Shown here one piece after another: positions 12,260-18,771 of a stretch of DNA of 64,000 nt. The DNA is from an uncultured delta proteobacterium (GTDB taxonomy: Bacteria; Myxococcota_A; Polyangia; Fen-1088). The translations under genes were made by a program, and so were the position numbers. The notes beneath the pieces are model-generated. The model worked only from the letters and a program-made list of their open reading frames with translations. It did no database searches and was not told the origin of the DNA. The first letter of the stretch is position 1. Every line of letters begins with the position of its first letter. Location: the NCBI GenBank assembly GCA_963767925.1, contig CAVYGB010000008.1:3168001-3232000 (forward strand). The letters run 5' to 3'.

Positions 12260-13639
12260 TCAATCCTTCAGGCGGAACGACTCGGGGTCGAGCTTGTACC
12301 GCCGGCACCAGCGGTAGATGAGGGGGGGCTTGCGGTCGAGCTCCCGCGCCACCCGGGCCACGTTGCCCGTGAACCGGCGCAGCAGCGCCTCCAGCTCACC
12401 TGAGGAAGGCGCCGGCCGGCCGCTGTGGTTGTGGGGGGTGTAGCGCAGCCGTTCGGGCGTCTGGGCGATGGTGCTCGGCAGGTGCTCGATCGTGATCACG
12501 TCCTCTTCCTCGGCCAGGGTGGCCGCGGTCTCCAGCACCTTGCCGAGCTCGCGCACGTTGCCCGGCCAGGTGTGCAGGCAGAGGGCCTGGAAGGCCATGG
12601 TCTCGAAGGGCTTGGCCCGCGCGCCCAGGAGGTACTGGCTCAGGGCGCCCAGGTCCTCGATCCGCTGGCGCAGGGGGGGGATGCGGATCGGCTCGGCCCC
12701 CAGCCGAGCCGACAGGTCGGGCCGCAGCCCCGCCTCGGTCGGCGAGGTCGGCGCCACCGAGCGGCTTGTGGCCGCCACAACCCGGACGTCGATCTTGCGG
12801 GGGCGGGTCGACCCCAGGGGGGTGATCTCCCGGTCCTGGAGGAAGCGGAGCAGCTTGGCCTGCAGCTCCTGGGGCATGTCGCCGATCTCGTCGAGAAACA
12901 GGGTGCCCCCCTCGGCCTCCTCGAACAGCCCGCGCTTGTCGCTCTTGGCCTCGGAGTGGGCCCCCCGGGCGAAGCCGAACAGCTCGCTCTCGATCAGCTC
13001 GCGGGGGATGGCGGCGCAGTTGATGGCCATGAACCTCCCCCCGCTCCCGCTGACCACGTGCACGGCCCGGGCGTACACCTCCTTGCCCACCCCGGTCTCG
13101 CCGGTCAGGAGGATCTCCCCCGGCGAGCGGGCCAGCTTCGTCAGCTTCTGGGTCAGCAGGGCCAGGGTCGGCGAGGAGGTGCCGACCAGGGCAAAGGGGG
13201 AGACCACGTCGGCGCGCAGGGCGCTGAGCTGCGGGTCGCTGACCAGGCGGAACACCGCCACGTAGCTGCCGAGGCAGATCAGCGAGCCGTCCTTGAGCTT
13301 GGCCGGCGTCTCCTTGACCAGGCTGCCGTCCACCGCCGTGCCGTTCCGGCTGCCGAGGTCGACGATCTCCCAGCCGTCGCCGCCCCGGCCGATGCGGGCG
13401 TGCATCCGGGAGACCAGGTCGTCGCGGATCACCCAGTGGCCGTCCGAGGCGGTCATCTCGGTGGCCCGACGGCCGATGGCCAGGCCCTCGTCGAACACGA
13501 TCACCCGCTCCCCCGGGCGGGGGGCACCCTGGCCGGAGCTGCCAACCACCAGCAGGGTCGGGCTCACACGGGTGTCGTCCCGGCGTCGACTTCTGTCGAT
13601 CGCCGTGTTGGTCAGGATGCTGTCCGGGTGGGCGGACAA
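12260..13639 (-). CDS. FHA-domain sigma54-type AAA+ enhancer-binding protein (EBP1)
   Basis: FHA (IGR, VSRMHA, GSRNGT); GETGVGKE, ESELFG, TLFLDEIG, WPGNVREL; Fis-type HTH; TTG 13639 with GGAGGA upstream; GAFTGA loop reads GAHSEA. Confidence 0.9.
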   Translation of the reverse strand: MSAHPDSILTNTAIDRSRRRDDTRVSPTLLVVGSSGQGAPRPGERVIVFDEGLAIGRRATEMTASDGHWVIRDDLVSRMHARIGRGGDGWEIVDLGSRNGTAVDGSLVKETPAKLKDGSLICLGSYVAVFRLVSDPQLSALRADVVSPFALVGTSSPTLALLTQKLTKLARSPGEILLTGETGVGKEVYARAVHVVSGSGGRFMAINCAAIPRELIESELFGFARGAHSEAKSDKRGLFEEAEGGTLFLDEIGDMPQELQAKLLRFLQDREITPLGSTRPRKIDVRVVAATSRSVAPTSPTEAGLRPDLSARLGAEPIRIPPLRQRIEDLGALSQYLLGARAKPFETMAFQALCLHTWPGNVRELGKVLETAATLAEEEDVITIEHLPSTIAQTPERLRYTPHNHSGRPAPSSGELEALLRRFTGNVARVARELDRKPPLIYRWCRRYKLDPESFRLKD

Positions 13640-14052
13640 AGACGTAGGTCCTCCGTCTAGGTGGGACTCTGTAGTACAGCGGCGGCCGCGGTTAGGGGAA
13701 GCGAAACTCGCCCCATCCGCAGTACTGCTGTAAGGGTTATGGAACCAGGTCACCAACCCCCGTTTCACGCGGTGACCACCTGCTCCGGCCCGCCCCGTCA
13801 GATGACTTGGACCGGTGCAACCCGGAGAATAGCTCCACCCCGTCCGCCCGCCAAGACCGTAGGAACCCTCACCTAGCCGACATCGCCCTCCTACCTGGCT
13901 TCGCCTCTCTTATCCGACTCACGGATCGCGGGACCTACATCGGGCCCCCCTGAGCGAAACCCGTACGGCAACCGGCCTCCCGCCGGTCCCCGCCCGACCG
14001 GCGGCCCCAGTAATTCCGGTGATTTGCCCCTCACGGCGGCCGTCCCGAGACC

Positions 14053-14067
14053 TGGAACAGCTGTTGC
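14053..14067 (+). promoter_or_regulatory. sigma54 (-24/-12) promoter upstream of the small peptide gene
   Basis: TGGAACAGCTGTTGC = GG-N10-GC, near consensus TGGCAC-N5-TTGC, ~40 nt before the ATG and divergent from an EBP gene. Confidence 0.7.
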
Positions 14068-14106
14068 CAACGAAAGCACGCGACCCGCTTCAACAAGGAG
14101 GGACGC

Positions 14107-14229
14107 ATGCTCAAGAAGATTCTGTTCGTCGCGACTCTGGTTCTTTCGTTTGGCTCTTTCGTGCCCGCCGCCGACGCGGGTCCGTATCCGGATTGCGAGC
14201 TGGAGCCCCACGCGCCCCAATGCTGGTAG
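14107..14229 (+). CDS. Small secreted peptide precursor, 40 aa: MLKKILFVATLVLSFGSFVPAADA|GPYPDCELEPHAPQCW
   Basis: Strong RBS AAGGAGG (14095-14101); classic Sec signal (KK, hydrophobic core, A-D-A site); 16-aa mature part with two Cys; TAG 14227-14229; absent from the ORF track. Confidence 0.8.
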   Translation: MLKKILFVATLVLSFGSFVPAADAGPYPDCELEPHAPQCW

Positions 14230-14251
14230 CCACTCGGCGCTGCGGTCGCGC

Positions 14252-16720: not shown

Positions 16721-16812
16721 CGCTTCTCCTCATGGGCCCCCGCTGCCCGGGCAGATTATCACGTCCCCCCGGCGGCCCGGCGAAGCGGCCCGCGCCTCGT
16801 GCGCGGGGTCGT

Positions 16813-17142
16813 TCAGGTCAACTCTGTGTTCGGAGCGACGGGCCGGTCGCCGTCCTGGAGCAGGACGAAGCGCTCGTAGCGGAGGCGGAAGGCGCCCCCC
16901 TTGAATCGCTGCAGGGCCCAGTCCATGGCGTCCTCGAGGGTGTCGAAGATGGCGATGGGGCGGGCGCGCGCCCCGGGCGTCACGTCGTCGGGGAAGATGG
17001 CGAAGCAGCAGTCGACGAGATCCTCGCCGTCGTCGGGCGCGCCCTCCACGACCGAGCGGATCGCTCGGGCCGGCTCGGACGGGGCCGGCTCGAGGGGTGG
17101 ATCGAACAGCGGCTCGGGCGGTCTCAGGCGTCGTTTGTCCAT
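16813..17142 (-). CDS. Small hypothetical protein (109 aa), co-oriented upstream of the kinase
   Basis: ATG 17142; globular-looking core (CCFAIFPDD...PIAIFDTLEDAMDWALQRF). Confidence 0.6.
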   Translation of the reverse strand: MDKRRLRPPEPLFDPPLEPAPSEPARAIRSVVEGAPDDGEDLVDCCFAIFPDDVTPGARARPIAIFDTLEDAMDWALQRFKGGAFRLRYERFVLLQDGDRPVAPNTELT

Positions 17143-17154
17143 GGGGAGGCCTTC

Positions 17155-17170
17155 AGCAAGGAACGATCCG
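17155..17170 (-). promoter_or_regulatory. Possible sigma54-type promoter for the small gene and kinase
   Basis: Minus strand CGGATCGTTCCTTGCT = GG-N10-GC; good -12 element, weak -24 element. Confidence 0.4.
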
Positions 17171-17358
17171 CCCGACAGCCCCGGACTTGCAGGGGGCGAG
17201 ACCCGGCGAGACGGCCCCGGATCCGTGACTGGGGCCGCGGGATACGTGACTCGACTCGAGGACACCCCTGGCGCCCCCGGGGTCCGAGGCCATTTTGGGT
17301 GCTAGAGTGCCGGAATGACGGTCCGCGTCCTCGAACTTCGACCGTCGCCGCGACTGTC

Positions 17359-18771
17359 ATGGAAGAGCTGACGACCCAGGACCAGGTGAGCCGCCGCCCC
17401 CCAGACCAGGTGGAGATGGCCGTCCTCCTGGTGCTCGGCCCCCTGGAGGGACCCGGGCGGGCCCTGGGGATGATCCGGCTGCCGGCCGAGCTGGAGATCG
17501 GACGGGGCGAGCCCCGGGTGGGCCCCGACCGGTGGCAGATCGACGACGGAACGGTATCCCGGCGCCACGCCGTCGTCCGGCGCGAGGCCGGCGCCTACCT
17601 CCTCGAGGACAGCGGCAGCCGCAACGGGACATGGCTGAGCGGCGTGGTGCTGCGGAACGAGCGGGCCCGCCTGGGCAACGGGGCCCTGATCGTGCTGGGC
17701 TCCGAGGTGGCGGCCTTCCGCCGGATGAACGAGGAGCAGCTGGCGGCCATCGTCGCCGAGCAGGAGCGGCCGCTGGGGCCGGTGCCGACCGCCTCCCCGG
17801 TCCTGGCGGAGGGGCTGCGCCGGCTGCGCATCCTGGCCGGGACCGACCGGCCGGTCCTCCTGGCCGGGGAGACCGGCACGGGCAAGGAGGTCTACGCCCG
17901 GGCGGTGCACGATCTAAGCGGGCGGCGCGGCCCCTTCATCGCCCTCAACTGCGCCAGCTTCAACCGGGAGCTGTTCGAGAGCCACCTGTTCGGCTACCGG
18001 CGCGGCAGCCACTCACAGGCCCGCGAGGATCACCCCGGGGTCCTGGCCAGCGCCGAGGGGGGGACGGTCTTTCTCGACGAGATCGGCGAGATGGAGCCCA
18101 CTCTGCAGACCAAGCTGCTCCGCTTCCTGCAGGACAAGACCTTCCTCGGCCTCGGCTTCACCCGGCCCCGCCAGGCCGACGTGCGGATCATCGCCGCCAC
18201 CCAGTCGCCGCAGACAACCTTGCGCGGGGACATCCTGGGCCGGCTCGGCGCCGACCCCGTGGTGTTGCCCGCGCTCCGGCGCCGGCGCGAGGACATCCCC
18301 GCCCTCTGCCGCCACTTCCTGCGCTGCCGGCCCGGCGGCGGCGACGTCCGGAGCGTCGACCGGGCCGCCTGCTTCGCCCTGTGCCTGTACGCCTGGCCCC
18401 GCAACATCCGCGAGCTGGAGGCCACCCTGGGCGAGGGGGCCCTGTCGGCCGCCGAACGCGGCGCCACCCGGATCGAGCTGCCGGATCTGCCCATGCGCAT
18501 CCGGGAGCTGGTCCGGCGGGGTCCCGACGCCGACGAGGAGACCGAGCCGGCCGGGCGTGCGCCCGCCCCCACGGACACGCCCCCCGCCACCCGCCGCGAG
18601 CGGCCCACCCGGGCCGAGCTGGAGGAGCTTTTGCGCCAGCACCACGGCCACGTGCCGGCGGTGGCCCGCCAGCTCGAACGGCGGCGCGAGCTGGTCTGGC
18701 GATGGTGTCGCCTCGACGGCCTCGACCCGAACGCCTTCAAGGACATCCGATCCGCCCTGAGGCCCCGCTGA
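17359..18771 (+). CDS. Second FHA-domain sigma54-type AAA+ enhancer-binding protein (EBP2)
   Basis: ATG 17359; FHA (IGR, VSRRHA, GSRNGT); GETGTGKE, TVFLDEIG, WPRNIREL; HTH; GAFTGA loop reads GSHSQA. Confidence 0.9.
   Translation: MEELTTQDQVSRRPPDQVEMAVLLVLGPLEGPGRALGMIRLPAELEIGRGEPRVGPDRWQIDDGTVSRRHAVVRREAGAYLLEDSGSRNGTWLSGVVLRNERARLGNGALIVLGSEVAAFRRMNEEQLAAIVAEQERPLGPVPTASPVLAEGLRRLRILAGTDRPVLLAGETGTGKEVYARAVHDLSGRRGPFIALNCASFNRELFESHLFGYRRGSHSQAREDHPGVLASAEGGTVFLDEIGEMEPTLQTKLLRFLQDKTFLGLGFTRPRQADVRIIAATQSPQTTLRGDILGRLGADPVVLPALRRRREDIPALCRHFLRCRPGGGDVRSVDRAACFALCLYAWPRNIRELEATLGEGALSAAERGATRIELPDLPMRIRELVRRGPDADEETEPAGRAPAPTDTPPATRRERPTRAELEELLRQHHGHVPAVARQLERRRELVWRWCRLDGLDPNAFKDIRSALRPR

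Follow-up and report, generated by a model that had tools for sequence, protein, structure and literature searches.

What do the membrane-bound Hanks-type serine/threonine kinases of bacteria sense, and can a genome itself name the ligand? To our knowledge, a ligand can be given for almost none of the bacterial Hanks receptor kinases. The textbook exception, according to PMC6213207, is the pairing of muropeptides with PASTA domains. We addressed this question at a locus within a 64-kb stretch of DNA from an uncultured delta proteobacterium of a soil-type myxobacterial lineage; the whole stretch is called the window here. In a local region of about 70% G+C, it contains genes for a putative receptor-type Hanks kinase, for a predicted secreted peptide precursor of 40 aa, and for an enhancer-binding protein (EBP) with an FHA domain, EBP1. 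An initial annotation, made by reading the window without database searches, had described this region as a peptide, kinase, FHA-EBP and sigma-54 signaling circuit, and each gene was found at the position that it had been given. Our results indicated that the kinase, the peptide gene and EBP1 are inherited together as a conserved unit. We give roughly even credence to the reading that they make up a self-contained feedback circuit, in which the kinase would act through the FHA domain of EBP1 on a sigma-54 promoter, and the Cys-loop peptide exported from that promoter's gene would act back on the kinase.

The gene order can be read directly from the window. EBP1 (12260..13639, minus strand) is listed in the public protein set as a protein of 459 aa with its start at 13639, while the open frame extends to 13768; it is composed of an FHA domain, a sigma-54-type AAA+ ATPase domain and a C-terminal tail resembling a helix-turn-helix (HTH). 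A gap of 467 nt separates it from the divergently transcribed peptide gene (14107..14229, plus strand), and the region 13640..14052 within this gap is where an EBP1 enhancer site would be presumed to lie. A motif search identified a sigma-54-type -24/-12 promoter, TGGAAC-N5-TTGC, at 14053..14067 on the plus strand; it reads into the peptide gene and lies 40 nt upstream of its ATG, and the peptide transcript would be predicted to begin near 14078. The ribosome-binding site AAGGAGG (14095..14101, plus strand) is found 5 nt before the same ATG. The kinase gene (14252-16720, minus strand) converges on the peptide gene and encodes a protein of 822 aa with Pfam matches to Pkinase and to a PD40 repeat. 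None of EBP1, its paralog EBP2 or the kinase was placed in a named equivalog by NCBIfam.

The evidence that carries our main conclusion is comparative. When the whole kinase was used as a query against 40 relatives, 11 other genomes showed near full-length matches of 36-56% identity, giving 12 loci. These were screened blindly for open reading frames (ORFs) that encode 25-90 aa, open with a leader-like segment and have two or more Cys residues after it. One such ORF was found at the 3' end of the kinase gene, on the opposite strand, in all 12 loci, and nearly all of these ORFs start with MLKKI; the result was the same when larger flanks were used. A profile built from the outer domain of the kinase alone was then used against 301 genomes of the class, and the domain was detected in 24, all belonging to one family (23 of 46 genomes there, and 0 of 254 in 31 other families); by public names, the class is Polyangia. 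A contig scan with the alignment of the whole kinase yielded only generic kinase domains from many phyla. All 11 newly found loci with enough flanking sequence carried both the peptide ORF and a divergent EBP1 ortholog, and none of them had been used to define the pattern.

Altogether, the intact trio of kinase, peptide gene and EBP1 was present in 23 of the 26 genomes having the outer domain. The remaining three consist of a locus at a contig end (L134), a frame-broken locus in which the C-terminal part of the peptide is still encoded (L136), and a weak partial match (L137). In each of the 23 loci, the EBP1 ortholog and the peptide gene are divergently oriented, and no paralogous kinase locus was accompanied by a peptide gene (0 of 4 and 0 of 6 in two sets). 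Homologous kinases that lack neighboring peptide ORFs, which the initial annotation had named as fatal to its reading, are the opposite of what was seen: a peptide ORF is present in all 23 orthologous loci, and the co-occurrence of the three genes there makes them a conserved unit. Because the trio is found in at least three different chromosomal neighborhoods, it moves and persists as a unit. Genes for an arginase and a TPR-zincin follow it in 8 of 11 loci, the window and L021 being without them. We also observed tandem duplication of the kinase gene in several relatives (L030, 6483-13021; L027, 6486-10533; L139, L127 and L130), where a second FHA-EBP precedes the first copy and the peptide gene is found only after the last one.

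Conservation also distinguishes the promoter of the peptide gene. The element at 14053-14067 has the spacing, orientation and upstream position of a sigma-54 promoter and is the only exact TGGNAC-N5-TTGC in the window, yet 21 of 100 shuffled sequences contained at least one, and its occurrence is therefore not significant alone. Across the orthologous loci, however, the 250 nt preceding the peptide ATG contain [CT]GG-N8-TTGC in 22 of 23 cases, and GGG-N8-TTGC in the 23rd, compared to a background of 0.06 per 250 nt for [CT]GG-N8-TTGC on both strands of the same loci. The peptide gene is thus preceded by a conserved -24/-12 element, in agreement with the initial annotation. Apart from this element, the flanks cannot be aligned from one genus to another, which argues that the element is under selection; intergenic blocks of the window are conserved with the sister genome only. 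In loci of two other genera (L028, L030, L126-L131 and L135), a direct-repeat block, GCGTAAC-N7-GCGTAAA, was observed about 70 nt upstream of the -24 element and about 150-180 nt upstream of the peptide ATG; the window is without this form. The block is a candidate EBP1 enhancer in those two genera.

The precursor encoded by the window consists of a predicted Sec-type leader, residues 1-24 (MLKKILFVATLVLSFGSFVPAADA), followed by the predicted mature peptide of 16 aa with two Cys (GPYPDCELEPHAPQCW). By inspection, it is built of MLKK, the core ILFVATLVLSFGSFV, and the sequence ADA|G. The same Sec-type build, with a basic start, a hydrophobic core and small residues at -3 and -1, was recognized by inspection in all 23 loci and in the larger family described below, and the peptide is predicted to be exported by the Sec route and cleaved after ADA. 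A ribosome site of the GGAG/GGGG type, also identified by inspection, lies 5-10 nt before the peptide ATG in 23 of 23 loci. The gene is present in a single copy in this genome.

Pfam and NCBIfam gave zero family matches for the 40-aa peptide. A profile of the 23 precursors, searched against a set of 5.8 billion proteins, retrieved 114 clusters, all of them named 'hypothetical' and with zero Pfam domains; clusters with a named source came from Polyangia or from metagenome bins labeled 'Deltaproteobacteria'. Members of this family share MLKKIAL, a hydrophobic core, an AxA-type site, a spacer rich in Pro, Ala and Thr, and then P-[QH]-G-Φ-C-x(4-7)-C at the C-terminus. Exactly two late Cys residues are found in 102 of the 114 clusters, and the second is the last residue in 88 of those 102. 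The start of the loop is often fixed; among loops of six residues, 52 of 55 have Pro as their second residue. Later positions differ even where the rest of the precursor is about 90% identical (for example, LPPSGR, LPPYGR and LPPGGH). The leader, hydrophobic core, AxA site, C-terminal Cys loop and ribosome site occur in all loci, and to judge from them the small ORF is plainly under constraint at the protein level.

The cytoplasmic part of the kinase (15785..16720, minus strand) comprises an N-terminal tail and a Hanks kinase domain (Pfam Pkinase, E 1.5e-40). Its catalytic motifs, VALK (K70), HRDVKPDN at 163, DFG at 183 and GTPAYMAPE at 204, are those of a Hanks kinase and are invariant in 12 of 12 orthologs. 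Inspection of the sequence revealed a hydrophobic span of 20 residues at 313-332 (WGLAAGLVLAGLATAGAFYL; 15725..15784, minus strand) with R/K just before it, which suggests a receptor with a single membrane span and a C-terminal domain predicted to lie outside. This outer domain, predicted to be periplasmic (residues 333-822, about 490 aa; 14252..15724, minus strand), contains the PD40 match, and six of its Cys residues are invariant among 12 sequences and five among 22. The structural model of the domain was all-beta, with 39 strands, a mean predicted local distance difference test score (pLDDT) of 75 and a predicted template modeling score (pTM) of 0.52. The solved folds closest to it were double beta-propellers, at template modeling (TM) scores of at most 0.60, and these matches support an outer domain of the propeller type and nothing beyond that. 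The extracytoplasmic beta-propeller of the initial annotation is consistent with all of these features. Within the N-terminal tail, Thr16 (16675-16677) is the sole invariant residue, in the context S-[VI]-T-x-[VAL]-[GA]; as a candidate phosphosite, it might be where the FHA domain of EBP1 docks.

EBP1 matched the Pfam families FHA (E 3e-15) and Sigma54_activat (E 1.3e-52). The Walker A and B sequences of the AAA+ domain, GETGVGKE and FLDEIG, are invariant. The FHA pocket of EBP1 contains GR at 99-100, SRMH at 120 and SRNGT at 140, and the residues expected to bind phosphothreonine (G99, R100, S120, H123, S140 and N142) were the same in all 12 proteins of the alignment, in support of the initial annotation's reading. 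With the catalytic motifs of the kinase, the GR/SxxH/N residues of the FHA domain and both Walker motifs of the EBP all retained, the parts appear competent.

Based on this arrangement, we infer that the kinase controls EBP1, that EBP1 activates the peptide promoter and that the peptide binds the propeller; the data are compatible with a loop of either sign. Engagement of the periplasmic propeller domain would cause the membrane kinase to autophosphorylate on Thr. EBP1 would then use its FHA domain to read the phosphothreonine of the kinase, the candidate sites being Thr16 in the N-terminal tail and the activation loop, and either this docking or phosphorylation of EBP1 itself might allow the AAA+ ring to assemble. 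EBP1 would in turn activate the sigma-54 promoter of the divergent peptide gene. The 40-aa precursor would be exported by Sec, cleaved after ADA and oxidized to a small disulfide loop, and the resulting peptide would act back on the kinase propeller as a genetically encoded ligand or modulator, closing the feedback loop.

Several observations weigh against this circuit, and some of them concern the step from EBP1 to the promoter. No EBP1 enhancer could be defined in 13640-14110, where a search for inverted and direct repeats gave weak palindromes only, and no Pfam HTH domain was found in EBP1 at E <= 0.01. In this assembly, rpoN occurs at a single locus (contig C8, 277728-279250, outside the window), where several frame changes interrupt it. 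The gene is intact in five of five relatives tested, with an open frame of 504-533 aa, and four of the approximately 50 EBP genes of this assembly are likewise split into two frames, so the breaks in rpoN are probably assembly indel errors. A further point is that loop L1, through which EBPs contact sigma-54, reads GAHSEA in EBP1 and GSHSQA in EBP2 rather than GAFTGA. According to a review (PMC7057263), the Phe of this loop is essential and Tyr is its sole natural alternative. The departure is characteristic of a whole subfamily: all 12 proteins of the alignment had G[AS]HS[QE]A, as did 119 of the 120 best homologs in public data, and this genome has five EBPs with the variant loop (EBP1, EBP2 and three others) and 35 with GAFTGA. 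The subfamily thus departs from a defining feature of sigma-54 activators, and direct activation of sigma-54 by it is putative. The initial annotation did not remark on this loop, which turns its premise that EBPs activate -24/-12 promoters into an inference at this locus. It is possible, though quite improbable in our judgment, that EBP1 is no sigma-54 activator at all and instead acts at sigma-70 promoters or as a repressor, the -24/-12 element being served by one of the approximately 45 EBPs of this genome with GAFTGA-like loops. TyrR, HupR and Rhodobacter NtrC provide precedents for EBPs without GAFTGA that act in ways other than through sigma-54. However, the variant loop does not itself vary, as would be expected if its function were retained; the remainder of the AAA+ domain matches Sigma54_activat at E 1e-52; EBP1 invariably neighbors a conserved GG-N10-GC sigma-54-type element (23 of 23 loci); and TGGCTC-N5-TTGCT motifs adjoin two other members of the loop subfamily, EBP2 and a protein encoded on contig C9. 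The conserved promoter might also serve an antisense RNA that extends into the kinase gene from its 3' side and lowers expression of the kinase, or of EBP1 by read-through, with the ORF being secondary. The kinase and EBP1 genes share a strand and flank the peptide gene, which is on the opposite one, and the peptide and kinase stop codons overlap by 4 nt in several relatives and overlap or lie within about 25 nt in most loci. In the window, the only terminator-like feature between the convergent stop codons is a weak hairpin with a T-rich tail (14236..14252, plus strand), at chance level and of no weight alone (one hairpin in the scan, compared to 1.6 expected in shuffles). This explanation appears far-fetched to us as the main one, as it leaves the protein-level constraint on the ORF unaccounted for, although both effects could coexist.

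The other points against the feedback circuit concern the peptide and its proposed receptor. The 23 loci are kin, and a count of 23 of 23 overstates their independence. The peptide of the window (GPYPDCELEPHAPQCW), of the form C-x8-C-W, lacks the family motif P-x-G-Φ-C-x-P; together with those of two near relatives, it is an outlier that combines the family leader with a different Cys pattern. A co-fold of peptide and propeller, which the initial annotation had suggested as a check, was performed with the orthologous pair of L025, its propeller and its mature peptide of 31 aa, as the window's own peptide has 16 aa and the method asks for at least 30. This pair scored 0.57, compared to 0.00 for the best of three controls, which is weak support; the runs agreed in at least 32% of contacts, and the pLDDT of the partner was 40-41. 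Of 157 solved complexes, 116 reach the mark, as do 2 of 215 mismatched pairs; these counts hold only roughly here, since custom alignments were used. Scores of 0.60 or less were obtained for 18 of the 157 solved complexes and for both mismatches that passed. The orthologous pair thus stood above its controls, but its pass falls in a weak band, where such predictions are false more often than true if the pairing was not already probable, and it raised our confidence in binding only slightly. Within the unit, the outer domain and the mature peptide evolve fastest (mean pairwise identity 0.34 for each, compared to 0.51 for the leader, 0.58 for the kinase domain and 0.62 for EBP1). In a mirror-tree comparison, however, the distances of these two parts gave a rho of 0.57, compared to 0.70 for the kinase domain and 0.79 for EBP1; there is no excess over the cytoplasmic controls and hence no co-evolution signal beyond shared descent. 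These results bear on an explanation that shares every step up to the promoter with the feedback circuit but in which the peptide is an output only: the kinase would sense some other periplasmic or envelope cue, and the peptide would be an effector, not its ligand. Possible roles include those of a small disulfide-looped antimicrobial, of a factor for adhesion or for the cell surface, and of a signal for a different receptor. The strong variation of the loop among near-identical precursors is what an arms race predicts, and the missing co-evolution signal and the weak co-fold pass fit this explanation as well. On the other hand, the peptide gene occurs once in the genome and accompanies this kinase ortholog alone, the unit includes no gene for immunity, export or modification, the outer domain and the peptide change equally fast, and the co-fold controls scored 0.00. 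We regard an output-only peptide as the less probable of the two, yet as the most serious competitor of the feedback circuit.

If the peptide does act back on the kinase, the question arises of where it does so. The initial annotation had proposed an autoinducing loop for quorum or kin sensing, and sensing between cells is the least supported step of the circuit, because the unit holds no outer-membrane exporter. Since nothing in the unit would take a peptide of 2-3 kDa across the outer membrane, periplasmic feedback, by analogy with MgrB and CpxP of Escherichia coli, seems at least as likely as signaling between cells. In the most far-reaching version, the Cys-loop peptides would be extracellular pheromones of a Gram-negative lineage read by the eukaryote-like receptor kinase, the hypervariable loop would define 'pherotypes' in an autoinducing quorum or kin recognition system of social myxobacteria, and the GAHSQA proteins would constitute a hitherto unrecognized class of sigma-54 activators gated by phosphothreonine. 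We consider this version unlikely.

The genes on the far side of the kinase are not part of the conserved core. EBP2 (17359..18771, plus strand; Pfam FHA, and Sigma54_activat at E 1.6e-45; GSHSQA loop) is an EBP1 paralog with 43% identity. We rejected it as a member of the conserved circuit: in the 21 loci from other genera it does not neighbor the kinase, and EBP2 and the small gene next to it accompany the kinase only in the window and in its sister genus member. The circuit with two EBPs that had initially been proposed is thereby reduced to one with a single EBP. Among the loci of larger relatives, a second FHA-EBP precedes a tandem kinase copy in 2 of 10 (L027 and L030). The small gene (16813..17142, minus strand) encodes a predicted cytoplasmic protein of 109 aa that had zero Pfam or NCBIfam family matches and was found in 11 clusters of the public set; its GC content by codon position, 0.74/0.49/0.90, is typical of coding sequence here. 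A conserved operon of this gene and the kinase was also rejected, the ortholog in the sister genome being inverted relative to the kinase. A sigma-54-like motif, CGGATC-N5-TTGCT (17155..17170, minus strand), lies 12 nt before the ATG of the small gene, and the sister genome has TGGCGT-N5-TTGCT ahead of its own copy (L002, about 595-610, minus strand); with a background of 0.43 per kb on both strands, the motif is suggestive only. The weak sigma-54 motif noted initially upstream of EBP2 (TGGGTGCTAGAGTGC; 17296..17310, plus strand) did not hold up. It is at chance level, as TGG-N9-TGC occurs 64 times in the window compared to approximately 40 expected.

Farther out, Pfam identified a response regulator and histidine kinase pair (9818-12243, plus strand) on the other side of EBP1. 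Directly after EBP2 lies a gene for an extracytoplasmic function (ECF) sigma factor (18933-19457, plus strand), with a sigma-54-type element, TGGCTC-N5-TTGCT (18890-18905, plus strand), about 30 nt before its likely ATG; EBP2 may control this gene. It is followed by a gene for a Cys-rich protein of 658 aa with a right-handed beta-helix region (Pfam Beta_helix; 19493-21469, minus strand). Elsewhere in the genome, three further FHA-type EBPs with GAHS[TQ]A loops are encoded at C8:770285-771823, C9:157600-159100 and C13:137187-138650. The copy on contig C9 is flanked on both sides by ORFs that read as kinase-like, and beside this protein, which has a GAHSTA loop, TGGCTC-N5-TTGCTTTGT precedes a kinase gene near 159223 and is near-identical to the element at 18890-18905. 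The occurrence of TGGCTC-N5-TTGCT elements beside two further members of the subfamily is a hint that the variant loop is functional, and the loop subfamily as a whole may be a branch of EBPs gated by kinases.

These findings matter because they bring the question of what Hanks receptor kinases sense within reach of direct tests in a single compact system. A candidate ligand is put forward by the genome, namely a disulfide-looped peptide of 16-31 aa that can be synthesized, and the receptor domain, the FHA-EBP reader and the output promoter are all found within approximately 5 kb. If the EBPs with the variant loop are active, the accepted range of functional sigma-54 contacts would widen. By-products of the analysis, at the level of sequence families, are a new EBP subfamily without GAFTGA and a new family of small peptides with predicted secretion, unannotated until now, of which 114 clusters in public data are brought to light.

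The initial annotation had not recognized the locus as a described system. Our literature search, in which most subscription journals were outside coverage, found no account of a Hanks kinase combined with an adjacent encoded peptide and an FHA-EBP, and it did not find the strings GAHSQA, GAHSEA or GSHSQA; however, the link from Ser/Thr kinases to FHA-EBPs is no novelty, being the topic of a paper by Jelsbak, Givskov and Kaiser (PNAS 2005) that PMC11980068 and PMC4320627 cite. The components are of known kinds, and a kinase that travels with the gene of its candidate ligand under a sigma-54 promoter was not found in the literature searched. In the threonine phosphorylation pathway of type VI secretion, as presented in PMC3953482 and PMC6213207, PpkA and Fha1 offer a similar arrangement in a diderm, with a membrane Hanks kinase that has a periplasmic domain and signals to an FHA protein. 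There, the output is post-translational assembly of a secretion machine, not transcription, and there is no encoded peptide. The Agr and Com systems of Gram-positive bacteria likewise employ a ribosomally made small-ring peptide with a polymorphic ring, a membrane kinase as its receptor, and autoinduction of the peptide gene, which is proposed for the present unit. Their receptors are histidine kinases and they have a dedicated protein for processing and export, whereas the candidate receptor here is a Hanks kinase, the unit contains no conserved maturation or export gene, and a plain Sec leader would direct the peptide into the periplasm, with no route across the outer membrane in the unit.

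Closer parallels to the proposed feedback within the envelope are MgrB with PhoQ and CpxP with CpxA of E. coli, in which a small envelope protein induced by the pathway acts on the periplasmic part of the sensor. MgrB also needs two periplasmic cysteines, and cpxP is divergent from cpxRA. Those pathways consist of histidine kinases and response regulators, in contrast to the Hanks kinase, FHA reader and sigma-54 promoter found here, and the sequences are unrelated. With regard to the receptor, PknD of Mycobacterium tuberculosis resembles the architecture predicted here: it, too, combines a Hanks kinase, a single membrane span and an outward-facing beta-propeller for which no enzymatic role is known. 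Its propeller is made of NHL repeats, whereas the domain of about 490 aa described here is of the PD40 type; the NCBIfam PknD model matched only the kinase domain, the one part where a sequence relationship was seen; and PknD is not known to have an encoded peptide partner, an FHA-EBP or a sigma-54 output. With regard to the reader, FHA-domain EBPs are reportedly found in Myxococcus xanthus, where control by Ser/Thr kinases is said to have been proposed. These proteins, too, have an N-terminal FHA domain fused to a sigma-54 AAA+ activator, in an organism with many Hanks kinases and with phosphothreonine as the input. A probable difference is the L1 loop, which is of the GAHSQA type here rather than GAFTGA. 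A second difference is that in the present unit the kinase partner, the target promoter and the secreted-peptide product are fixed by conserved adjacency.

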